From an uncultured Candidatus Saccharibacteria bacterium (lineage in GTDB: Bacteria; Patescibacteriota; Saccharimonadia; CAILAD01; BJGX01), in assembly GCA_964481235.1 (NCBI GenBank), contig CAYZYH010000006.1:1-58817 (forward strand): a stretch of DNA of 58,817 bases, read 5' to 3'. The position numbers were made by a program, and so were the translations under genes. A model generated the notes under the pieces. That model was not told the origin of the DNA. It saw nothing but the letters and a program-made list of their open reading frames with translations, and ran no database searches. Positions 8,901 through 50,233 of this stretch are shown piece after piece (position 1 is the stretch's first letter; each line of letters starts with the position of its first letter).

Positions 8901-10019
8901 ATGAAAAAAGTTCTTATCTTAACTACTAGCTATGGGCAGGGCCATATAGCTACTGCAAAAGCCATAGAAGAGGGTTTGCAACGACAATCTAAAACCCCCA
9001 TAGATATTGAGATAGTAGACTTTACTGAAACAATTAGTAGTTTGCTCAACAAAACCTCCAAAAAAATGTATGAGGATACATCTAAATATGCTCCTTTGTT
9101 ATACAAATTCTTTTTCGATTCCACCGACTTCCCCTTACCTTTTATAGCTCTAAATAGTATTAACTACTACCTAAGTCGAGAAAAAATACTCAATCTTTTT
9201 CACTCTAAAGACCCTGACTTAATAATTTGTAATTCACCACACTGGCAATACATTGCCTCGCTAGCTCGTGAAAAAGATTTTCAAAATGTTCCTTTGGTAT
9301 CAGTTATTACCGACTCTATTACTATCCATGCTTCTTGGACGATTGGCGATAGTGACTACTATATTGCTCCAAACCAAGAAACTTCTCACTCTCTACAGAT
9401 CTTAGGTGTGCAGAAAGATCGAGTCAAAGTGTTGGGCTACCCAATAAGCCTAAGTTTTACTGATAAATCTTTTCACAAATCCAATTTCTTACAAAGTGTT
9501 GGTCTAAGCTCTGGTAAAAAAATAATTCTTTCATTGGTAACAGGTATGCGCTATAGTTCTGCAAGCAAAACCCTAAAGCAACTTCAGCAAACATTGCCCG
9601 ATACTCAGATAGTAGCTATCACCGGCAGAGATGAGCCCTTATATAACAAGCTTAAAACCAACTTTGGGCCAACCATAAAGCTAATAGGTTGGACAGAAAA
9701 GATGCCACAATTTATTCTTGCTAGCGATCTTGTAATTACTAAGGCCGGCGGCTCAACTGTCATGGAGTGCTTAGGGGCAATTAAACCCGTTATTATATGT
9801 AAGATTATACCTGGCCAAGAAGAAGGTAATGCCGAGTATATTACTAAACACCACCTAGGAATTGTTGCGCTAGAACCCGAGATGATTGCTCATGCAGCAC
9901 ACAAAATACTAGACAATATGCCTAGTTACTGTAAAAGCCTTAATAAGGTCGCTATACCCCAGGCTAGCCTATCTATTGCAAGCTTTTTATTAGATTTGAT
10001 AGAGAACAATCAGTCTTGA
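8901..10019 (+). CDS. MGDG-synthase/UgtP-like diacylglycerol glycosyltransferase (GT28 family)
   Basis: 372 aa. N-terminus KVLILTTSYGQGHIATAKAIEE is typical of the MGDG synthase N-domain. The C-terminal GT28 motif is present (ITKAGGSTVMECL...PGQEEGNAEY). Confidence 0.7.
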   Translation: MKKVLILTTSYGQGHIATAKAIEEGLQRQSKTPIDIEIVDFTETISSLLNKTSKKMYEDTSKYAPLLYKFFFDSTDFPLPFIALNSINYYLSREKILNLFHSKDPDLIICNSPHWQYIASLAREKDFQNVPLVSVITDSITIHASWTIGDSDYYIAPNQETSHSLQILGVQKDRVKVLGYPISLSFTDKSFHKSNFLQSVGLSSGKKIILSLVTGMRYSSASKTLKQLQQTLPDTQIVAITGRDEPLYNKLKTNFGPTIKLIGWTEKMPQFILASDLVITKAGGSTVMECLGAIKPVIICKIIPGQEEGNAEYITKHHLGIVALEPEMIAHAAHKILDNMPSYCKSLNKVAIPQASLSIASFLLDLIENNQS

Positions 10020-11221
10020 GCGTATTGCAAAACACACTTGGCAATATTTTTGGCAGCGTCTACGTGTTGTTGACGAATCTTCTCGTATTTAGGACCACCA
10101 ATTTGTACCACTCCGTCAAGAATGTCTTGTACTGCTATGACCGCCAGAGCATTTGTGGACGCCCAAATACCGGCCTTGTTTTCTACCACATAAAGCAAGT
10201 TACCCTCTTCTTGTCCAGGTAAAAAATCAAAAAGAACCACTGGTAGACGGCTTACTATGCCTTCTACGATAGTTCCTGGGCCAGCCTTGGTGAGTAATAC
10301 ATCGGCGCCACGCATCATGGTTGGTATATCGTCTCTAAACTCATAGATATTGACTGGTTTTTGAAATTTTCTGGCTTTGAGAGTTCGGTACAAGCTTTTG
10401 TTGCGCCCAGCAATGATCGCCATATGAACATTTTGCTCCATTTTGTCGATTTTTCTTGATAACGAATTTATCTTGCCCATACCATCTCCACCAGCCATTA
10501 TTAGTAAGGTAGGTAGGTCGGCAGGCCACCCAAGCTTAGTCTTGGCAGTTTGTTTGGTTAGTTTTACTTTACTATAATCTCCCGACACTGGCTGTCCAAT
10601 TACTTTTAGGCGAGAGGATGGCACGCCAAAACCCCTAGCTCGTACATAGCTTTCCTGGCTAGGAACTATTATTAAGTCGGCTCGCTTATCAAACCACATA
10701 GGGTGTCCTGTAACCAAGTCAGTTACCACTGTAATAAATGGTATTTTACGCTCATAGGTCTTAAGTGTAGAAAGTATTGGGTTTACTCCAAAATGGCAAG
10801 ACACTATGAGGTCTGGGGCGAAATGGTCTAGTAATTGTCTAAACTCTTTTTTATATGGCATACCCATAGCCTCTAAGGCAAACTGAGCCCGTTTGGTACC
10901 TTCGGTAAGTTTAAAAATTGTCCCCCAGGCTGATTTTAGCTTGGTAACCCCAGAGTACATCTTGGGTATATCCCTAATTGGACGAGGTGCATTTTCCATA
11001 AAATCGTGATGTATTATCTCAAGCTTGTCAGTGTGTTTTTCTAGTTCACTAATAATCGCCAGTGCAGCTGCTCTATGTCCTCCACCGGTTCTCGCCGAAA
11101 TTACCAACACACGTTTTTTATTCTTTACCATATATGCATACATTATCACACTTTTTGCACCAATAGGACAATACTGATACCATAAGAGGTATATATGTCT
11201 GCCTCTACCTCTAACCCCCAC
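10010..11221 (-). CDS. Second MGDG-synthase/UgtP-like glycosyltransferase (GT28), paralog of the previous gene
   Basis: RVLVISARTGGGHRAAALAI near the N-terminus and LTKAGPGTIVEG...LPGQEEGNLLYV near the C-terminus. The true start is probably the internal Met (MVKNKKRVLVIS, near 11131), because the annotated 5' end overlaps the divergent neighbour. Confidence 0.7.
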   Translation of the reverse strand: MGVRGRGRHIYLLWYQYCPIGAKSVIMYAYMVKNKKRVLVISARTGGGHRAAALAIISELEKHTDKLEIIHHDFMENAPRPIRDIPKMYSGVTKLKSAWGTIFKLTEGTKRAQFALEAMGMPYKKEFRQLLDHFAPDLIVSCHFGVNPILSTLKTYERKIPFITVVTDLVTGHPMWFDKRADLIIVPSQESYVRARGFGVPSSRLKVIGQPVSGDYSKVKLTKQTAKTKLGWPADLPTLLIMAGGDGMGKINSLSRKIDKMEQNVHMAIIAGRNKSLYRTLKARKFQKPVNIYEFRDDIPTMMRGADVLLTKAGPGTIVEGIVSRLPVVLFDFLPGQEEGNLLYVVENKAGIWASTNALAVIAVQDILDGVVQIGGPKYEKIRQQHVDAAKNIAKCVLQYAQD

Positions 11222-15105: not shown

Positions 15106-15918
15106 ATGTACGCTCTATTTTTCGACAAAAGCGCATTAGATTCTCAATCACTACTTAGCTTTGTTAGTGAATGGAAAGTATCAAAAAATATTGCTGGAGA
15201 AGATTTTAAAGTACATAACGTTGAAGAAATTACTACAATATGTCGTGAATATGGAAAAAAATACAGCACTGTAATTGCCGTTGGTGCAGATAGGACCTTT
15301 GATTCATTAGTTGGACAGTCAAAACATCTCAACCCAGACGTTGTGTTTGGCTATATACCGAGTAATGTTAATGTATTAGCAAAAAGAATTGGAATAAAAG
15401 ATTACAAAGAAGCTTGTAATGTAATATCCCAAAGAAAGATTATTGAACTTACAGCTTTATCTTGTAGCCAGAACTACTTTCTATTCACTCTCGTAATTAA
15501 TGTAGAACAAAATGAACCCAAAAATCAAAAAAAGGTGTTCATAGAAATAGATAATACTTTAGAGATTAGTCTCAATACTGACAGTATTCTTTTGCATAAC
15601 CGAAACCAAGAGTTACTACCCCACGATACAGCCATACTCTTAGAGGCCTTTAACAAACCAGTAGTGCCAAATCAAGACCGAAACTTACTCAAAATTGCTT
15701 CATCTCGCTTAAAGAGCGGTGGGGCTACGGTTAAACAGCTACAGTTAAGGGTGCCTGGTGATAAGATAAGAATTGAATCGTCTACTCCACTGTCAGACAC
15801 TTATTCTAGCTCTATAAAGCAGTCACTTAGAATAGGGTTTAGTAAAAAACCTACTCGTTTAATAGTGAAAAAGGGTCAGGAATTGCAAGCTATCATGTCT
15901 CCAGGGTTGATTTCTTAA
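15106..15918 (+). CDS. DAGK/YegS-like lipid-kinase-fold protein with a degenerate GGDGT motif
   Basis: 270 aa. AVGADRTFDSLVGQ sits where GGDGTxxxVxNG would be. Overall length and layout resemble the DAGK_cat family. Low confidence. Confidence 0.35.
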   Translation: MYALFFDKSALDSQSLLSFVSEWKVSKNIAGEDFKVHNVEEITTICREYGKKYSTVIAVGADRTFDSLVGQSKHLNPDVVFGYIPSNVNVLAKRIGIKDYKEACNVISQRKIIELTALSCSQNYFLFTLVINVEQNEPKNQKKVFIEIDNTLEISLNTDSILLHNRNQELLPHDTAILLEAFNKPVVPNQDRNLLKIASSRLKSGGATVKQLQLRVPGDKIRIESSTPLSDTYSSSIKQSLRIGFSKKPTRLIVKKGQELQAIMSPGLIS

Positions 15919-15958
15919 ATTTATCATGCTATTATTGTCTGGAGCTTAAGGAGATAAT

Positions 15959-16519
15959 ATAAAAAAACAGCGTCTACGTCTAAATCATGAAATAAAAGCC
16001 TCTTCAGTAAGATTATTGGGAGAAGATGGTGAACAGCTTGGTGTGGTCACACTAAATGAGGCCCTCAAAATGGCTGAATCGCAAGGTTACGACCTAGCTG
16101 AAGTATCTCCAGCCGCAAACCCACCTGTTTGTAAATTGTTAGATTGGGGTAAATACCAGTACGAACAAGAGAAGCAGCGCCAAAAAAGTCGTAAGAATCA
16201 AAAAAGCGTTGAGGTCAAACAGATAAGAATGGGTTTAAAGATTGGCACACACGATATAGAAGTAAAACAAAGAGCAGCGCGAAAATTTTTAGATTCTGGT
16301 AACAAGGTTAAGATAACGGCTCGTTTCAAGGGACGTGAGATGGCCCACCAGGAGCTTGGAAAAGTAGTACTAGATAAGTTCTTCGAAGGACTATCAGATG
16401 TGGCCGTTCAAGAAGGTGAACCTATAATGACTGGCCGTGACATGTCTATCATTGTACACCTAAAAAAAGAGCTAGGCTCCAATTCATTAACACCAAGTGA
16501 TAATTCTAGTAAGATATAA
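15959..16519 (+). CDS. infC: Translation initiation factor IF-3, probably starting at a non-AUG (AUA) codon
   Basis: RLNHEIKASSVRLLGEDGEQLGVV matches the IF3 N-domain, and the C-domain is present. An in-frame TAA at 15947 and an AAGGAGA SD at 15946-15952 leave only near-cognate starts: ATA at 15959 (6-nt spacing), ATA at 15992 or TTG at 16016. The unusual infC start is a known autoregulatory feature. Confidence 0.8.
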   Translation: MKKQRLRLNHEIKASSVRLLGEDGEQLGVVTLNEALKMAESQGYDLAEVSPAANPPVCKLLDWGKYQYEQEKQRQKSRKNQKSVEVKQIRMGLKIGTHDIEVKQRAARKFLDSGNKVKITARFKGREMAHQELGKVVLDKFFEGLSDVAVQEGEPIMTGRDMSIIVHLKKELGSNSLTPSDNSSKI

Positions 16520-16544
16520 TATTGTAATAAGGTAAGATATTGAA

Positions 16545-16742
16545 ATGCCCAAGCAAAAAACTAATAAAACCATGTCTAAACGTATAAAAGTTACCGGTAC
16601 CGGTAAGATTTTGCGTAGAAAGGCTACTAGAGCACACAAACTCACACTTAAATCTGGCTCTCGAAAACGCGCCTACACCTTAGAACACGGCATGGCTAAA
16701 GGCGATAGTAAGAATGCTAAAAAAATGGTAGGAGTCAAATAA
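16545..16742 (+). CDS. rpmI: 50S ribosomal protein L35
   Basis: MPKQKTNKTMSKRIKVTGTGKILRRKA... is the classic bL35 sequence, in the infC-rpmI-rplT order. Confidence 0.9.
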   Translation: MPKQKTNKTMSKRIKVTGTGKILRRKATRAHKLTLKSGSRKRAYTLEHGMAKGDSKNAKKMVGVK

Positions 16743-17083
16743 TGAGAGTAAAACGCGGTGTAACCGCCCACAAACGCCACAAGAAAATTATAAAACTTAC
16801 CAAGGGCTATGGTAAAACTCGCCGTGCTAGCTATAGAAAAGCTCACGAAGCTGTACTCAAAGCATTGAGTTATCAGTACAGAGACAGACGCAATATCAAG
16901 CGAGACATGAGATCACTTTGGATCACCAGAATAAGTGCAGCTGCAAAACTCAACGGCACAAGCTACTCTAGCTTAACTCACGGTCTTAAGACCGTCGAGA
17001 TAAAGATAGACCGTAAGATTCTTGCTGAACTTGCAGTCAATCAACCAAAGGCCTTTGAAGCAATAGTTAAAGCTGCTAAGTAG
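16742..17083 (+). CDS. rplT: 50S ribosomal protein L20
   Basis: MRVKRGVTAHKRHKKIIKLTKGY...RDRRNIKRDMRSLWITRISAAA is bL20. Its start overlaps the rpmI stop (TAATG). Confidence 0.9.
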   Translation: MRVKRGVTAHKRHKKIIKLTKGYGKTRRASYRKAHEAVLKALSYQYRDRRNIKRDMRSLWITRISAAAKLNGTSYSSLTHGLKTVEIKIDRKILAELAVNQPKAFEAIVKAAK

Positions 17084-17093
17084 CTTAAGTTAC

Positions 17094-25560: not shown

Positions 25561-28002
25561 CTACACCTGTAGGTCACCAACATCAAGCACTACTTGGGCG
25601 CCCTTCTGAACTTTGCCAGACAGTATTTGCTTGGCAACGGTATTCTCTACCATTCTTTGTACGGCTCTTCTCATTGGTCTAGCTCCTAATCTAGGATCAT
25701 AGCCAACATCTACTAGGTGTGTGTAGGCAGACTCAGTGAGTTGTACAGAAATTTTCTGCGCCGAGAGTTCTTTATTTACACCTCTTATCATTAAATATGC
25801 TACTTGCAGAAGTTCTTTCTTATTGAGTGGCCTAAACAGCACCAGCTCGTCAAAACGATTAATAAGTTCTGGTTTGAATAGGTGTTGATTTATAATATTG
25901 TCGGTAAATTCTTGCTCAAATTGTTCTAGTGATTGACCAGCCTCTATGTGTGATCTAATTTCATCAGAGCCAGCATTTGAGGTACAAATAACTATTGCTT
26001 CTTTAAATGAAACTTTTTTACCACTCTCGTCGGTAAGTACCCCTTCGTCTAATAATTGTAAAAGTAAATTCAATATATCGGGGTTGGCTTTTTCTATCTC
26101 GTCGAATAATACTACTGAGAACGGTTTCTGTGTAATAGCTTCAAGTAATGGACTACCAGCTTCATCCTCTGAGCTAGCCGATAAGAATCTATGAACATCT
26201 TCTGTAGTCTGATACTCACTCATATCTAAGCGAATCATATCTCCTTCTCCACCGAAATACACTGCCGCCAAAGACTTGGCTAGTTCTGTTTTACCTACAC
26301 CAGTTGGTCCCAAAAATAAGAAGCTTCCAACTGGTCTATTGGTGTTTCTCACACCTGCTCTTGAGCGTCTCAAAGCATCCGCCACTACCTTCACTGCTCT
26401 TTCCTGGTTGATCATGCGTTGGTGTATAAGATCTTCAAGTTGTAATAGTTGACCCTTTTCTTGGTTATCACCTTCTTTTACCTTAGTATTGGCAATTATT
26501 TCAACTGCCTGCTGTACAGACTCGGGGGTAATAATGCCATTAACCGGATAGTTGCAGCTATCTTCTAGTAGATCGATAGCTTTCGAAGGCATGCCTTTAT
26601 CTTGTATGTACCTTTCCGCTAGTCTATAGGTCTCCTCAAGAGCCTTAAAGGTAATAGCTCTGCGATACTGAGCCTCAAAATTTATGGCTATATCTTGCAA
26701 AATAGCTATGGTTTGTGCTTGATCAGCTTCTGCAACATCTACTCTAGTAAAAGTTTGTCCTAGACTAGGATTACTAGAGGTAAGCTTATGCCAATCTTGA
26801 TTATTCATAGATATAATACATTTAAGACCGGTTCGCTCTAATATCGGTAAAAGTATTTTAGAAATATTAACTGTACCTGGCTCATTACTGAAAAATAACT
26901 GGGCTTCATCAAAAAACAGGATAATATTACCGGCTTTTACTGTGTTAACAAATATTTGTTCAAATATTTGTTCTATATGTGTATCCTCTGTTACTGAAGC
27001 AGTGACAACTGTAGGGTCTATCTGAACAATTTGTTTATATTGCAGGCTAGGGTCAGTCTCACCTCTTATCATTTGCTCAGCCAGTGCGTAAACTAGAGCT
27101 GATTTTCCTACCCCTACCTCGCCAATCAATGCAATACTTCCTCTATTTGGTCTAGCTAAGTTTGTAGACATTTGCTCAAGTACATGCCCTCTACTTACAC
27201 CTGAGAAGTCTTGGTTGCCATTCTGTATCTCTAAGCTAATATTGTGCCCGTATTGGTCAAGTATAGGTGTAAATCCCGATGCCCAGTCCCTACCTATACC
27301 TCCAAACATATTATTTTTCTTAGGTGTTAACTCTCTTTTTAAAAGTGATTCTTGCCACTGTAGACCCTGCACTATATCTTCGATGTCGAGAGCGAGCGTT
27401 GTGATATATTCAACTATTTTGGGTGTGCCAACAATAATTGCTGTAGCAATCACTCCTGCGTTTACCTCGCGCACTGGCATTTGCTGTACAAGCTGTACAC
27501 ACAGGTGCCACATAGCTGCACTATCAGAAGGACTCTGCGATATTCTAGACACTATCTCGGCTTCACTGAGCTCGTAGTGCAATAGCAAGAATCTTAGCTC
27601 CCAATTCTTATTAATGCTCTCCCAAACTTGTTTTGGCGACATTGTAGCATTAATACTCGACACAATATCACTTGCTAGCACCTTATCTAGAGCTAGTGAG
27701 CCGTCTGTGGCTGACATAACGGCAGGAATATCGCCTAGATCCCAGCTCAGCCAAAAACTAAAGCATATAAAGCTAGTAGCTAATCCTATAAGTATATAAC
27801 CTGGATGTATACCAACGAATACTAAGATAACCCCGCCGACTATTAATAAAATACTTAGAAAGGTGCTTATTTTGGCTGTTGAGTGAGGAAAATGGTTTAC
27901 AAACTTTGCTTTTCGCACCCTCATCGTTGTTGAATATGTGATATCGCTCATGAGAATCCTAAAATAAAGAAGCCTACTAAACCAAATGGTAAGAAAGGCC
28001 AA
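25561..28002 (-). CDS. Clp/Hsp100-family double-AAA+ ATPase (ClpC/ClpA-like) with an N-terminal transmembrane region
   Basis: Two Walker A sites (GEVGVGKSA; GPTGVGKTEL). The Clp_N-like region is preceded by ~100 aa containing 2-3 hydrophobic helices (LSILLIVGGVILVFVGIHPGYILIGLATSFICFSFWL). The true start may be an internal Met. Confidence 0.75.
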   Translation of the reverse strand: MAFLTIWFSRLLYFRILMSDITYSTTMRVRKAKFVNHFPHSTAKISTFLSILLIVGGVILVFVGIHPGYILIGLATSFICFSFWLSWDLGDIPAVMSATDGSLALDKVLASDIVSSINATMSPKQVWESINKNWELRFLLLHYELSEAEIVSRISQSPSDSAAMWHLCVQLVQQMPVREVNAGVIATAIIVGTPKIVEYITTLALDIEDIVQGLQWQESLLKRELTPKKNNMFGGIGRDWASGFTPILDQYGHNISLEIQNGNQDFSGVSRGHVLEQMSTNLARPNRGSIALIGEVGVGKSALVYALAEQMIRGETDPSLQYKQIVQIDPTVVTASVTEDTHIEQIFEQIFVNTVKAGNIILFFDEAQLFFSNEPGTVNISKILLPILERTGLKCIISMNNQDWHKLTSSNPSLGQTFTRVDVAEADQAQTIAILQDIAINFEAQYRRAITFKALEETYRLAERYIQDKGMPSKAIDLLEDSCNYPVNGIITPESVQQAVEIIANTKVKEGDNQEKGQLLQLEDLIHQRMINQERAVKVVADALRRSRAGVRNTNRPVGSFLFLGPTGVGKTELAKSLAAVYFGGEGDMIRLDMSEYQTTEDVHRFLSASSEDEAGSPLLEAITQKPFSVVLFDEIEKANPDILNLLLQLLDEGVLTDESGKKVSFKEAIVICTSNAGSDEIRSHIEAGQSLEQFEQEFTDNIINQHLFKPELINRFDELVLFRPLNKKELLQVAYLMIRGVNKELSAQKISVQLTESAYTHLVDVGYDPRLGARPMRRAVQRMVENTVAKQILSGKVQKGAQVVLDVGDLQV

Positions 28003-28307
28003 ATTATTAAAATTACCAAGCTTACCACTAGCATAGCTACCATTGAGACTAGTCCAGCGACAATAGTAAATAATCTAATAGTAAAGCCCACAAATCTCGA
28101 TACTAAGTTATCTACTATAGCCCTAAAGAAATTCTGTATTCCTTTACCAGAATCTGTTTGAATTCTCTTCCAGGGTGCAAAAAGTGTTTTCAACAAAATT
28201 GGTATAGAAAACATATACCATATAGCCTTAAGACGCGCTTGGAGAGTTGAAGCTAATCGGGCAAAGCCTCGAGTATACCACCAGGAGAAAAACTCAATAA
28301 TAAGCAT
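27948..28307 (-). CDS. Small integral membrane protein, unknown function
   Basis: 119 aa and very hydrophobic. Overlaps the 5' end of the Clp ATPase ORF, so one of the two starts is probably mis-set. Confidence 0.35.
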   Translation of the reverse strand: MLIIEFFSWWYTRGFARLASTLQARLKAIWYMFSIPILLKTLFAPWKRIQTDSGKGIQNFFRAIVDNLVSRFVGFTIRLFTIVAGLVSMVAMLVVSLVILIIWPFLPFGLVGFFILGFS

Positions 28308-29406: not shown

Positions 29407-30039
29407 TTATTGTAGCACGATAGGATGTCCTAGTATAACCGATGCTAAGCCCGTGACTACGCTTAATATAAATGGCCCAATAAACTTATAAAGTAGTAAA
29501 AGTATTACAAATATCATTAATATACCATAGCGCTCCATCTGGTCCATTACATCCTGCATACTACTTGGTAACGCAGCATATAGCACCCTAGATCCGTCTA
29601 GAGGCGGTATAGGTATCATATTAAACACAAAAAAAGCTAAGTTGATTAGCACGAATTGCAACAAGAATATTCCTGCTATTCCACCTAGGTCAAATAATCT
29701 AAGAAACAAACCTGCAAAAATTGCCATAATCAAGTTACTTGCTGGTCCAGCAACCGCTACCAAGGCTGACCCCCATTTACCGTAACGCACCGCATATGGA
29801 TTAAAGGGCACGGGTTTGGCAGCTCCAAATACTACCGGCGAACCAATAAGTATGAGTGCTACAGGCAAGAATAGTGTTGAAAAAGGATCAATATGGGCGA
29901 TCGGGTTGAGAGTGAGCCTACCCTCTCTCTTTGCAGTCACATCACCCAGTAAATGCCCCGCCCAGGCATGGCAAAACTCATGTACCGTAAGAGCAATAAT
30001 TACAATAACTAGATATAACCCAATCGCCGCTAAGTTCAT
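29407..30039 (-). CDS. Site-2 protease family zinc metalloprotease (peptidase M50)
   Basis: HEFCHAWAGH (HExxH within a TM helix) in a polytopic membrane protein with a later LDGS-type motif (PLDGSRV). Confidence 0.75.
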   Translation of the reverse strand: MNLAAIGLYLVIVIIALTVHEFCHAWAGHLLGDVTAKREGRLTLNPIAHIDPFSTLFLPVALILIGSPVVFGAAKPVPFNPYAVRYGKWGSALVAVAGPASNLIMAIFAGLFLRLFDLGGIAGIFLLQFVLINLAFFVFNMIPIPPLDGSRVLYAALPSSMQDVMDQMERYGILMIFVILLLLYKFIGPFILSVVTGLASVILGHPIVLQ

Positions 30040-30085: not shown

Positions 30086-30919
30086 TTAGTAGAACTGACC
30101 TTTTTTATATGTCCCCAGCTCAAAGCACTCACAGTCTATTTTACTTAATTCGGTCATAGTTTTTATTGTATTATCACTTTGAGAACCGGCATCGATATCT
30201 ATATAAAACTGATAGTGCCATGCTTTACCAATTATAGGCCGTGACTCTAGTTTTGAAAGATTGATGTTGTTTCTTGCAAACACTCCTAGCGCCTTATATA
30301 GCGAACCTGGCTGATGATTAGTACGGAGTATTAAAGAAGTCTTCTCAGCATTAGAGTCTGCTTCTTTTTGTTTGGATATCACAATAAACCTTGTGTAATT
30401 TTGTTTGTGAGATTCAATCTCTTCAGCTAACACTTCGAGACCATGATGCTTAGCAGACTCTTTACTACCAATTGCTACTATTTTGTTATCTGCTAACATG
30501 GCCACTTTTTCTACACTAGCTGCAGTATCATGCTCTTCAACCCTCTCGGCAAAATCTAAGTGTTTATCTAACCAATCTTCACATTGTGCCAAAGCCGGTA
30601 ACTGGGAATGAATCTCTTTTATTTGTTTTAAATTAGTTCCCTTTAGGCCTACTAAACAGTGGTTGATTCTAAGATATACTTCGCCGACTATCAATGTTTT
30701 TTTCTTCATTAGTTGGGCATATACATCAGCGATGGAGCCGAAAAGCGAGTTTTCAATTGCTACCAAGCCATAATCGGATTCACTGGTAGCCACATCTTTA
30801 AAAACCTCTTTAAAGGTATCTCTATGCAAAACATTGGTTTTGTTTTTGCCAAAATACTTTTGCCTGGCAATATCGTGAAAGGAATAGCTTTTACCCTGTA
30901 TAGAAACGGTGCTTTTCAT
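30086..30919 (-). CDS. pheA: Prephenate dehydratase
   Basis: 277 aa with a PDT domain, the ESRP motif (LSKLESRPI) and a C-terminal ACT domain. Confidence 0.8.
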   Translation of the reverse strand: MKSTVSIQGKSYSFHDIARQKYFGKNKTNVLHRDTFKEVFKDVATSESDYGLVAIENSLFGSIADVYAQLMKKKTLIVGEVYLRINHCLVGLKGTNLKQIKEIHSQLPALAQCEDWLDKHLDFAERVEEHDTAASVEKVAMLADNKIVAIGSKESAKHHGLEVLAEEIESHKQNYTRFIVISKQKEADSNAEKTSLILRTNHQPGSLYKALGVFARNNINLSKLESRPIIGKAWHYQFYIDIDAGSQSDNTIKTMTELSKIDCECFELGTYKKGQFY

Positions 30920-33742: not shown

Positions 33743-34459
33743 TTATTGGGGTCTTTTTTGTGCAACTCTTGCAGCGATATTTTCTAACCAATCGTCGAGC
33801 CTAGAAAGTCGATAGTCGCTATTACTTAAGCGCACAGCCTGCTCAATAATATAATCAGCTACAACTGGATTTTTCGGTAAGAATGATCCGTGCAAATAAG
33901 TACCGATTGCGTTGTTACTAAAAATCCCCTCTTCTTTGGATACCTTATTGTTTCCAAAGCCTTTGGTAACTAAGCCTAGAGGTTTTTCACCCGCCAAGAG
34001 CTCTGTATTGCCACTATGATTCTCAAAACCTACCATTTCACCAAATTTATCACTATTAATAACAATGTTTCCTATCATCCTAAATTCTGTTGCTTTTGTT
34101 ATTGCATTGAATATACCTATACCTGGTATATCTTCTTGGTTTGAGGTAACAAAGTACTTACCAAAAAGCTGATAACCGCCACAAATAGCAAGCATCGGAA
34201 CTTTTCTATTAAAATGGTCGTGTATTATTTTTCTGTGTTTTTGCAAGTCTTGTGCCGCATAAGTTTGTCCTTTGTCCTGCCCACCACCGATAAATATAAT
34301 ATCGAAATCATCTTTAAGATTGTCATCTATTAAGTGCTTATGGTATTCATATTTTATACCACGCCACTCCATCCTTTTTTGTAGAGTAATGATATTACCA
34401 AAATCACCATATATATTCATTCTATCTGGGTATAAATGAAGTATTTTTATAGGTTTCAT
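33743..34459 (-). CDS. gatD: Lipid II isoglutaminyl synthase glutaminase subunit GatD (CobQ-type GATase)
   Basis: 238 aa with a class-I GATase fold and a catalytic Cys in AICGGYQL. It is immediately downstream of murT with a 4-nt overlap. Confidence 0.8.
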   Translation of the reverse strand: MKPIKILHLYPDRMNIYGDFGNIITLQKRMEWRGIKYEYHKHLIDDNLKDDFDIIFIGGGQDKGQTYAAQDLQKHRKIIHDHFNRKVPMLAICGGYQLFGKYFVTSNQEDIPGIGIFNAITKATEFRMIGNIVINSDKFGEMVGFENHSGNTELLAGEKPLGLVTKGFGNNKVSKEEGIFSNNAIGTYLHGSFLPKNPVVADYIIEQAVRLSNSDYRLSRLDDWLENIAARVAQKRPQ

Positions 34460-35838
34460 GAAGAAATACCTCTTATACTACCGTTGCTCTTTTTTGCAAT
34501 TTCCTTTCGTATAATCATCATTGCTGTATAAGTGGGAAGTATATATGCCGTATTATCCCTGGGTGTAAGTTCAATAAGTTTATCTAGAGCCTTTTCTATG
34601 TTGGGCTCAATACTTATTTGATCAATACTAATGCCGGCGTACTTAAGTCTGAGTGCCATATCGTAAGCTCGGCTTCCACTTACTACGATTTTTGCTTTGT
34701 AGCTACTAATATCTTCTATCGCGCTATCCCATAACCAAGACACATCTCTACCGTCTGCTAAGTGATCATTGATACATATTAGTAGTGGTTGGGTTTGAGG
34801 CTTTGGTTTTAAATAGGTTTGTATTACTTGATTGAATCCGGTAGGGTTTTTAATAAGAATTAGCTCTATTTGTCTTTTAGAGTAAGTTAGCTCTTCACCT
34901 CTACCGAAGGCCGGAGTACTATTATTAAGCGTTTCTATAAGGGCTTTAGTTTTTATATTAACGATATTTGCAACACCTATAACCGCTAAGGCATTGTATA
35001 TATTATACAGACCTGGCAACTTTAGGTTAATTTTTAGTACTTCTGTTGGTGTTTTTACATCAATTTTAGAACCATTCTTAGATATTTGGTGCATTCTCGA
35101 TAGTGTTATTTGGGGTTTTGGCCTTGAGTTCTGAGTATTTTTTGACCTGTAGATTCCTATATGGCTAAAATAACGTTGTGTATATTTCAACTTTTTGCCA
35201 GTATTTATGTCGAATACACTATCGGCAGTATAATCATGTTCAATCTTCTCACCAATATATTCATTAACGCCAAAATATACTACGTCTTTTTTAGATTCTC
35301 TGCCCAAACTTGCTACTAGGGGGTCGTCAGCATTAAGAATAAGAGTAGATTGAAGATCTTTAAAGGTGTTGCGAAAGTTATTTGCTATGCTGTCAAGTTC
35401 ACCGTATCGGTCTAGCTGATCTCTAAACAAGTTGGTAACTACAAGGTAGTCGGGCTTTAGATCTCTACACACACTAGGTATGTAAGCCTCATCCACCTCA
35501 AAAACGGCCATATCCTCTTTGCATCTACCTTTGCTATTGCTATGAGCCAAAATTGTGGCAATAACACCTCTTCTAAGGTTAGAGCCTGCAGTATTGCGAA
35601 CAAAGCTGATACTACTACGCTTTAAAACGTCTGCTATTATTTTTGATGTGGTAGTCTTACCGTTCGTACCTGTAACAACAATGACACCTTTTGGAAAATT
35701 ATTTTTACGTAACTTACTGAGTAGATTAGAGTCTATTTTTTCGGCAACCAAGCCAGGCATAGCCGTACCGCTCAATCTAAACAGCTTACCTGTTGAGCTA
35801 GCTAGCTTCGCCGATTGAATTGCTATATATTTACGCAT
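34456..35838 (-). CDS. murT: Lipid II isoglutaminyl synthase subunit MurT (Mur-ligase family)
   Basis: Mur-ligase central domain P-loop (TGTNGKTTT) and a C-terminal DUF1727-like region. Paired with gatD. Confidence 0.8.
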   Translation of the reverse strand: MRKYIAIQSAKLASSTGKLFRLSGTAMPGLVAEKIDSNLLSKLRKNNFPKGVIVVTGTNGKTTTSKIIADVLKRSSISFVRNTAGSNLRRGVIATILAHSNSKGRCKEDMAVFEVDEAYIPSVCRDLKPDYLVVTNLFRDQLDRYGELDSIANNFRNTFKDLQSTLILNADDPLVASLGRESKKDVVYFGVNEYIGEKIEHDYTADSVFDINTGKKLKYTQRYFSHIGIYRSKNTQNSRPKPQITLSRMHQISKNGSKIDVKTPTEVLKINLKLPGLYNIYNALAVIGVANIVNIKTKALIETLNNSTPAFGRGEELTYSKRQIELILIKNPTGFNQVIQTYLKPKPQTQPLLICINDHLADGRDVSWLWDSAIEDISSYKAKIVVSGSRAYDMALRLKYAGISIDQISIEPNIEKALDKLIELTPRDNTAYILPTYTAMMIIRKEIAKKSNGSIRGISS

Positions 35839-38931: not shown

Positions 38932-40188
38932 CTAATGTTGGGTACTTTTTCTCACTTCATCTGTAGCAAATCCAATCTTATCAAGAGAAAATGACTGCTC
39001 AGCCCAAGAGCTAGCCGATAAAACAACTTTAGAACCATACTTATTTTCTAGAGAATCTACAGCCTCAGACAAAGCTGAATTACCAGGGCCTAAGGACGTA
39101 GGTAAAAAATCTAGTTGTCGTAATGATGTTAAATCTATCAAAGTAATGTTAATTTTCTTCAATTTAGAAATATATTTATGTTTTTTTAACAACATATTAA
39201 TATAATGGATAATTAAATAATTACTACTAAAGGCAGGTAGCTTGTTAAGCTTATAATTGAAATAAATATTATCAATATAGGCCAGCTGAATAACCAAGCC
39301 TTTAGCAAATAACTTATTTTCTCTAAGTCTATAACCAAGAACTTCAGCTATTTTTATACAATATGTTGTAATTTTATATAAATTAGTGTTTTTTAAACCT
39401 GTTATGGTCACTTGGTGACCTAGTGATTTACGTTCTATAACTGGTAATTCATCTACTTCGTAACCCCTAAGTCTTAGGTACCATTTTTGGCCATTTACAC
39501 CAAAGTGTCTACTTAGAAACCTCCAAGAAGATCGATACAGATCAGATGGCGTATTGATTTGTTGAGATATAAACTGCTTAGCCATTCTCTTACCTACACC
39601 GGTAAGATCGGTAAGCTTAAAGTTAGAATAAAATTCTAAAAGATTGGACTGTTCTATACAAAATAAACCATTAGGCTTGTCATAGCTCGCGGCCATTTTG
39701 GCTAGCCAGACATTGCTAGCTATGCCAATAGAACAATTTATATGTTCATCATATAAATTTCTAATAGAGCTATTTATTGCTTTACATAAAGCAAATACTC
39801 GATCTTTATTTTGCGCGTACGAAGGCACTTTGAGGTATGCCTCGTCTATTCCACGGGCTCTCACTCGGCAAATTGTACTATGTAGTACATTCATAAATTC
39901 ATTGTGAACTTGTCTATATTGAGTTGGATTGCCATAAGCTATCTCTATATCTGGGCAAAGCATTAGAGCCTCACCTACCTTAATACCAGTATATATACCG
40001 GCTCGCTTTGCAATATACGATGCAGCTACAATACTTGAACCCATTGTATAACCAGTCGCTATACCCACTGGTTTATTGCGTAATCTCGGGTTGTAATACT
40101 GCTCTACCGATGCAAAAAATGAATCCATGTCTATATATATAGTTGAGTAGTCTATGGGTTTTTGGCGTAACATTTTTTCTGGAATCAT
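38932..40188 (-). CDS. dinB: Y-family DNA polymerase IV (DinB/ImpB/UmuC family)
   Basis: N-terminal IDMDSFFASVEQ catalytic motif and the overall Y-family layout. Confidence 0.85.
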   Translation of the reverse strand: MIPEKMLRQKPIDYSTIYIDMDSFFASVEQYYNPRLRNKPVGIATGYTMGSSIVAASYIAKRAGIYTGIKVGEALMLCPDIEIAYGNPTQYRQVHNEFMNVLHSTICRVRARGIDEAYLKVPSYAQNKDRVFALCKAINSSIRNLYDEHINCSIGIASNVWLAKMAASYDKPNGLFCIEQSNLLEFYSNFKLTDLTGVGKRMAKQFISQQINTPSDLYRSSWRFLSRHFGVNGQKWYLRLRGYEVDELPVIERKSLGHQVTITGLKNTNLYKITTYCIKIAEVLGYRLRENKLFAKGLVIQLAYIDNIYFNYKLNKLPAFSSNYLIIHYINMLLKKHKYISKLKKINITLIDLTSLRQLDFLPTSLGPGNSALSEAVDSLENKYGSKVVLSASSWAEQSFSLDKIGFATDEVRKSTQH

Positions 40189-49816: not shown

Positions 49817-50233
49817 CTATTTAGAGTCTAGATTATAGGTCATACCACAAACAGAACCGAGGTCTATATCGGACTGCATTGCCTGCTTATAAAGATCTTC
49901 TGAGGCTACCAGCGCTAGATTGGTGCTAGAGCCGCCGATACTATCTAGGTAAAAACGTTCGCCAGACACATTGTCGAACAACTCTATGGCTTGAAGAGGC
50001 CATTGCTTGGCTACAGAGTAGGCGTGGCGTAGCTCGGCCTCGGTAATTAGCCAAGCAGTTTTTTGGTGGCTCTTAAGGCTAGCAAATGTCTCTGCTACAT
50101 TGTTGGTAATATAATAATTATTGCTTTGCAGTGCACTCTTGAGGTTGTCTAGGCTACTGTCATTTTTGTAAATAATAAGACCAGCTTCACGACTTTGAGA
50201 TTGAGTTGTTAAATAAGTATGTAAATCTTGCAT
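49817..50233 (-). CDS. Hypothetical protein (138 aa), last gene of the MoxR-VWA cluster
   Basis: ORF 24 nt downstream of the VWA gene on the same strand. No recognisable motifs. Confidence 0.45.
   Translation of the reverse strand: MQDLHTYLTTQSQSREAGLIIYKNDSSLDNLKSALQSNNYYITNNVAETFASLKSHQKTAWLITEAELRHAYSVAKQWPLQAIELFDNVSGERFYLDSIGGSSTNLALVASEDLYKQAMQSDIDLGSVCGMTYNLDSK

Follow-up and report, generated by a model that had tools for sequence, protein, structure and literature searches.

It is textbook knowledge that infC, the gene encoding initiation factor IF3, can start at a codon other than AUG. The infC gene of Escherichia coli is autoregulated through its AUU start codon (Sacerdot et al. 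1996, via PMC1865079; PMC5499595; PMC7797042). For Flavobacterium johnsoniae infC, LC-MS/MS and mutagenesis of the start codon have proven an ATA start (PMC7797042). In Staphylococcus aureus, retapamulin ribosome profiling (Ribo-Ret) revealed an AUA start of infC preceded by an extended Shine-Dalgarno (SD) sequence (bioRxiv 10.1101/2025.06.19.660503). The infC operon of Bacillus subtilis carries the L20 leader (Rfam L20_leader), a structured 201-nt leader with a terminator that controls the operon by transcription attenuation (PMC1865079).

We analysed infC in a 58,817-nt contig of Candidatus Saccharibacteria (CAYZYH010000006.1, assembly GCA_964481235.1, forward strand); this whole stretch of DNA is termed the window. 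Reading of positions 15500-16900 and translation of 15920-16519 showed that the infC frame is shut upstream by a TAA at 15947-15949. The codons that follow are GGA GAT AAT ATA (15959) AAA AAA CAG CGT CTA CGT CTA AAT CAT GAA ATA (15992), and further downstream TTG (16016). No in-frame ATG, GTG or TTG was found in the infC frame between TAA 15947 and 16016, and ATA 15959 is the sole codon one base off AUG from the stop to the conserved IF3 N-terminus. The original prediction that infC lacks an AUG start was therefore correct, there being no ATG, GTG or TTG ahead of the conserved N-domain, and its coordinates (TAA 15947, AAGGAGA, ATA 15959, ATA 15992, TTG 16016) were all confirmed by re-reading. 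On comparative, domain and SD evidence, we propose ATA 15959-15961 (+) as the initiation codon. The predicted coding sequence (15959-16519, +) would comprise 186 codons plus a stop and encode an IF3 with N and C domains, as judged by matches to TIGR00168, Pfam and solved structures. SD-backed initiation at ATA 15959, with no AUG available, is strongly supported by the comparative evidence, and infC very probably starts there.

The gene lies in a conserved infC-rpmI-rplT cluster; rpmI (ribosomal protein L35; 16545-16742, +) is the next gene and is followed by rplT (ribosomal protein L20; 16742-17083, +). The locus resembles E. coli infC in its near-cognate AUH start, normally spaced SD and infC-rpmI-rplT order, and in that a non-canonical start codon is kept in relatives. 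It differs from E. coli infC in that the start is AUA rather than AUU, and in that a lipid-kinase-like ORF, not thrS, lies ahead. It also differs in having its own predicted extended -10 promoter and a putative leader of ~17 nt. The ATA start, the mis-annotation by gene callers and the manner in which autoregulation is deduced are shared with F. johnsoniae; in contrast, the SD here is 7 nt long, and Bacteroidetes are largely devoid of SD-led initiation. As in S. aureus, AUA is combined with an extended SD, which has been proposed to direct the choice of a non-canonical codon; unlike S. aureus, the locus has no long L20-responsive leader of the type found in Firmicute infC operons (PMC1865079). 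The infC-rpmI-rplT content is common to B. subtilis; however, only 23 nt lie between the -10 element and the start codon here, with no Rfam match at E <= 1 and no consensus structure. A literature search found no paper linking Saccharibacteria with non-canonical start codons. The infC gene in the window is a further case of the known non-AUG infC starts, and an AUA start was already known elsewhere.

The SD, UAAGGAG (15947-15953, +), can pair through 7 contiguous bases with a canonical 16S 3' tail, and it begins with the very TAA that closes the infC frame upstream. AAGGAGA occupies 15948-15954, and 5 nt separate GGAG from ATA 15959. The anti-SD of the organism was taken as canonical because the 16S gene lies outside the window; on this assumption, the SD duplex energy was -9.2 kcal/mol for ATA 15959, -1.4 kcal/mol for TTG 16016, and -1.3 kcal/mol for ATA 15992. 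The strong SD predicted to be set for AUA is thus present. Among 59 long ORFs in the window, the median SD energy was -6.7 kcal/mol and infC ranked ~10, in a ranking that gave the other ORFs their best candidate start. Of 53 long ORFs in the window, only 10 have a canonical start preceded at 4-10 nt by a full GGAG. Near-cognate triplets that follow a GGAG at this distance occur in the window at 7.7e-4 per position, and the chance of the ATA and GGAG arrangement over the ~6 permitted codon positions is ~0.5%. A chance origin of the arrangement is unlikely.

AAGGAG was considered as a specific marker of gene starts and was rejected: it is not enriched in the window (21 sites vs ~19 expected), and only 7 of the 21 sites precede a canonical long ORF. 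One further site, an AAGGAG followed after 5 nt by an in-frame ATT at 26246 (-), lies inside a long AAA-ATPase-like ORF (25561-28002), whose sequence reads ...LGPTGVGKTELAK... at this place. The site mimics the infC arrangement by chance, which shows that the motif by itself does not identify a start. Because such look-alikes arise by chance, comparative evidence is decisive for the infC start.

A survey of GTDB with a single genome for each species revealed 80 related loci (49-85% protein identity). Most of these loci and of the closest database proteins bear the label Candidatus Saccharibacteria, Saccharimonadia or Saccharimonadales. The loci were anchored on an invariant Asn, and the start was read as the in-frame codon 6-8 codons upstream with a GGAG-type SD. 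In the resulting 81 loci (80 plus the window), which are phylogenetically related so that their counts are not independent, the SD-linked codon was ATC in 37, ATA in 27, ATT in 14 and CTG in 3. ATG, GTG or TTG was the SD-linked infC codon in none of the 81. A GGAG SD was present in 78/80 related loci, the remaining two having a weaker GGAT-type SD, and the spacing from GGAG to the start in relatives was 5-11 nt. When the codons were mapped by Fitch parsimony onto a quick NJ protein tree, the three ATH codons had switched among themselves at least 14 times, and the CTG clade accounts for one further change. An in-frame stop directly precedes the SD-linked codon in L008-L011 (TAA-ATA), L023 (TAG-ATC), and L004 and L006 (TAA-CTG); therefore, no alternative start is available in these loci.

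The change from ATA to ATG is a single transition and was never seen, which argues for selection against canonical codons. These data constitute clean comparative evidence against canonical starts: 81 loci, at least 14 switches, and 0 switches to a canonical codon. They argue for a non-canonical infC start being maintained, with canonical codons selected against, across the 81 loci. Selection for a start codon discriminated by IF3 would predict this codon pattern, and reading it as autoregulation is therefore reasonable. In E. coli, the near-cognate codons that initiate at 1-2% of AUG are precisely these four: AUA, AUC, AUU and CUG (bioRxiv 10.1101/063800). The original description of AUA as an even rarer codon than AUU did not hold. 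ATA is the second commonest infC start in the phylum (27/81 loci), and an AUA infC start is known in F. johnsoniae (PMC7797042) and S. aureus (bioRxiv 10.1101/2025.06.19.660503).

The three CTG loci form the sister clade of the window's lineage (L004, L005, L006), and their IF3 is 75-76% identical to that in the window. In each, CTG (2001-2003) occupies the position of the window's ATA and is preceded by the same SD, with TAA immediately upstream in L004 and L006. Apparently, infC of this clade starts at CUG.

A promoter scan located a sigma-70-type infC promoter that extends into the 3' end of the preceding lipid-kinase-like ORF. Its -35 hexamer TTGATT (15907-15912, +) lies inside the last codons of that ORF, and the extended -10 element TGcTATTAT (15927-15935, +) follows after a 17-nt spacer. 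The pattern TTGnnn-(16-18 nt)-TGnTAnnnT precedes infC in 77 of 79 loci, and 74 of these 77 have a spacer of 17 nt. Between the end of the -10 element and the start codon lie 23 nt in the window, 23-33 nt in the clade of the window, and 33-63 nt in others. From the distance to the -10 element, we infer that transcription starts near 15941-15943, which would leave a 5' UTR of ~17 nt (GGAGCUUAAGGAGAUAAU; 15941-15958, +). An in-frame ATG at 15926-15928 was rejected as a start: TAA 15947 closes its frame, it overlaps the extended -10 element, and it precedes the putative transcription start.

No conserved structure was found in the leader and first 60 nt of coding sequence, RNAalifold giving 0 pairs on 29 sequences. 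The RNA from the window folds worse than most shuffles (183 of 200 were at least as stable; z = +1.35), and neither its SD nor its start codon is paired in the predicted fold. Rfam yielded no match at 15700-17100 at its gathering score, nor when the limit was relaxed to E <= 1; the absence of any hit at E <= 1 indicates that a Firmicute-type L20 leader is absent. A structured leader, whether an L20 leader or a riboswitch, was rejected on these three grounds.

Two short motifs were seen in the leaders. GAGCTT at 15942-15947, among the first bases of the putative leader, is conserved at the same position in L001-L029, L036, L052, L053, L070 and L079; GAGCTTT sits 6-9 nt after the -10 element, and the bases between vary. 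No structure or pairing partner for GAGCTTT was found in the clade. It may be conserved as the context of the transcription start or as a second, stand-by GGAG site. In another clade of Saccharibacteria, infC leaders are longer (33-55 nt) and carry a conserved CGAGTA-N3-5-CTC motif at the 5' end, as in L043 (1939-1968), L045 (1956-1985), L047 (1940-1969) and ~20 other loci. This motif could form a hairpin of 4-5 bp at the 5' end (GAGU...ACUC). RNAalifold gave no consensus pairs for it in the longer-leader clade.

We propose the following explanation for the locus. infC would be transcribed from its own extended -10 promoter into an mRNA with a short leader of ~17 nt that has no predicted structure. 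The 7-nt SD UAAGGAG would bring the 30S subunit to the weak AUA codon at 15959, 5 nt downstream. AUA would presumably be read by the initiator tRNA with a third-position mismatch, with likely initiation by fMet, and the product would be a 186-residue IF3. IF3 would destabilise 30S initiation complexes on near-cognate start codons, so that more free IF3 would lead to less initiation on infC mRNA, as in the negative feedback of the E. coli AUU type, here through AUA. We estimate the probability of this full explanation (promoter, short leader, AUA start behind an SD, and negative feedback by IF3) at roughly 70%. Of the readings considered, autoregulation through start-codon discrimination would explain the data best, and AUA 15959 probably mediates the IF3 feedback.

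Near-cognate start codons are disfavoured by IF3 (PMC9723500; PMC7797042), and therefore IF3 would limit its own synthesis. AUU and AUA starts in particular are impeded by IF3 in vivo (PMC9723500). The fidelity-related residues R18 and Q26 of the window IF3 match E. coli R25 and Q33; they are kept here and invariant in aligned relatives. E. coli R25 is among the N-domain residues that touch the elbow of initiator tRNA, and mutation of these residues raises AUU/AUA initiation (PMC9723500). In E. coli extracts, translation of AUA mRNA nearly matched that of AUG mRNA, and excess IF3 lowered it by only 20-25%, vs >60% for AUU (PMC5499595). Because AUA is nearly as active as AUG and repression by IF3 is only 20-25%, feedback through AUA could be weak.

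The same extract data bear on the main rival reading, in which the non-AUG start is real and serves only to hold IF3 synthesis constitutively low, in keeping with a sub-stoichiometric ratio of IF3 to ribosomes, with no meaningful feedback by IF3. The weak sensitivity of AUA mRNA to added IF3 (PMC5499595) fits this reading. A strong SD together with an unstructured leader would favour efficient initiation that is possibly insensitive to IF3. However, low expression could be obtained equally well with AUG and a weak SD, and the pairing of a strong SD with a weak codon in 81/81 loci is what would be expected for a codon-specific sensor. Moreover, IF3 mutants lift AUA initiation 1.5-2-fold in vivo (PMC9723500), so that some feedback is hard to avoid on biochemical grounds. 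We consider constitutive low expression unlikely. A broader idea goes beyond feedback at this one gene: Saccharibacteria may keep infC, with its conserved extended -10 promoter and, in the clade of the window, a very short unstructured leader, under strict selection for four weak codons. As about one in six long ORFs of the window look leaderless, the IF3 level might tune SD-led vs leaderless translation. If true, IF3 feedback would have a lineage-specific regulatory role in reduced genomes, beyond IF3 homeostasis. We regard this idea as doubtful.

In another reading, translation begins at TTG 16016-16018 (+), as in the deposited annotation (167-aa call P0001), and the in-frame sequence upstream would be untranslated. 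TTG 16016 is the first canonical start in the frame and was chosen by the ORF finder as well as by the deposited annotation. Against it, TTG 16016 has no SD (-1.4 kcal/mol). Of 78 relatives, just 3 have TTG at the corresponding codon, and the closest relative, L001, has CTT there. In the 81 loci, mean entropy by codon position (1, 2, 3) was 1.02, 0.49 and 1.69 bits over the 13 codons that lead up to the TTG-equivalent; it was flat (1.79, 1.76 and 1.83 bits) over the 39 nt that precede the proposed start. This strong codon periodicity indicates that the stretch ahead of the TTG-equivalent is coding, and the stretch includes an invariant Asn and an invariant Arg.

The protein evidence points in the same direction. 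The infC product is an IF3 by NCBIfam TIGR00168 (197 bits vs a cut-off of 60), and position 2 of that profile falls on residue 3 of the ATA-start protein. Pfam IF3_N covers residues 9-76 and IF3_C residues 84-167. The IF3_N profile is covered at positions 2-69 from the ATA start vs 14-69 from TTG 16016, so that a TTG start would drop profile positions 1-13, including R18 (E. coli R25). Solved IF3 chains were matched at E = 2e-45; together, these matches mark the product as a bona fide two-domain IF3. Alignment with the solved structures supports the ATA start: residue 8 (LNHEI...) pairs with residue 6 of the Geobacillus stearothermophilus and Thermus thermophilus IF3 chains. In the structure alignment, residue 7 pairs with residue 14 of E. 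coli IF3. Thus, relative to the solved chains, the N-terminus from ATA is normal in length. Asn9, Ile12 and Arg18 are invariant across aligned relatives, and the TTG would be an internal codon, Leu20. Given its lack of an SD, its poor conservation, the shortened IF3_N domain and the periodicity of the upstream codons, the TTG start was rejected as very improbable.

The original prediction had named sequencing error as a way in which it could fail. Three independent assemblies from different SRA runs (L081-L083) are identical to the window, base for base, over 15896-16030, and sequencing error is therefore excluded; the design is also common to the 80 relatives. ATA 15992 shares the infC frame, and a single metagenome assembly may contain errors. 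Even so, a start at this second ATA, or the loss of an AUG through a pseudogene lesion or an artefact of assembly or sequencing, is extremely improbable, since ATA 15992 encodes the invariant internal Ile12 of the N-domain, has no SD (-1.3 kcal/mol) and is preceded by conserved coding sequence with the invariant Asn, and the artefact and lesion readings conflict with the identical assemblies and the 80 related genomes that share the design.

The favored ATA start has consequences for annotation. The deposited 167-aa protein from TTG lacks 19 N-terminal residues, including R18. The exact 186-aa ATA-start protein was absent from a collection of 15 billion proteins, where only the 167-aa TTG call was found. 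We examined 122 retrieved public models of related Saccharibacteria IF3 (P0001-P0122). Only 6 of the 122 begin 6-8 residues before the conserved Asn, i.e., at the SD-linked start. The Asn motif is missing from 62/122, which are truncated; 27/122 start <6 residues before Asn, and 27/122 are over-extended upstream to a spurious ATG, GTG or TTG. NCBI annotates L020 from ATT, and P0057 (MCC7289470.1) agrees with the L020 translation from ATT at every residue after the first. Mis-annotation of infC in Saccharibacteria is systematic. The main value of these findings is practical: gene callers for the candidate phyla radiation should permit ATH and CTG starts for infC. They also extend the textbook arrangement of the IF3 start codon to an ultra-small, episymbiotic lineage.

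Other features of the window were also recorded. In ~10 of the 59 long ORFs, an extended -10 element (TGnTAnnnT) ends 6-9 nt before a candidate start. These ORFs include 8901-10019 (+), 10010-11221 (-), 27948-28307 (-), 29407-30039 (-), 30086-30919 (-), 34456-35838 (-), 38932-40188 (-) and 49817-50233 (-). This proximity suggests that their mRNAs may be leaderless. The window further contains an ordinary-looking tmRNA (6323-6713, -) with the tag peptide ANTLISKIKAAFTLPTLAPAYA, an ordinary-looking bacterial class A RNase P RNA (23551-23930, -), and four ordinary-looking tRNA genes (Pro-GGG, Val-GAC, Thr-CGT and Asp-GTC).
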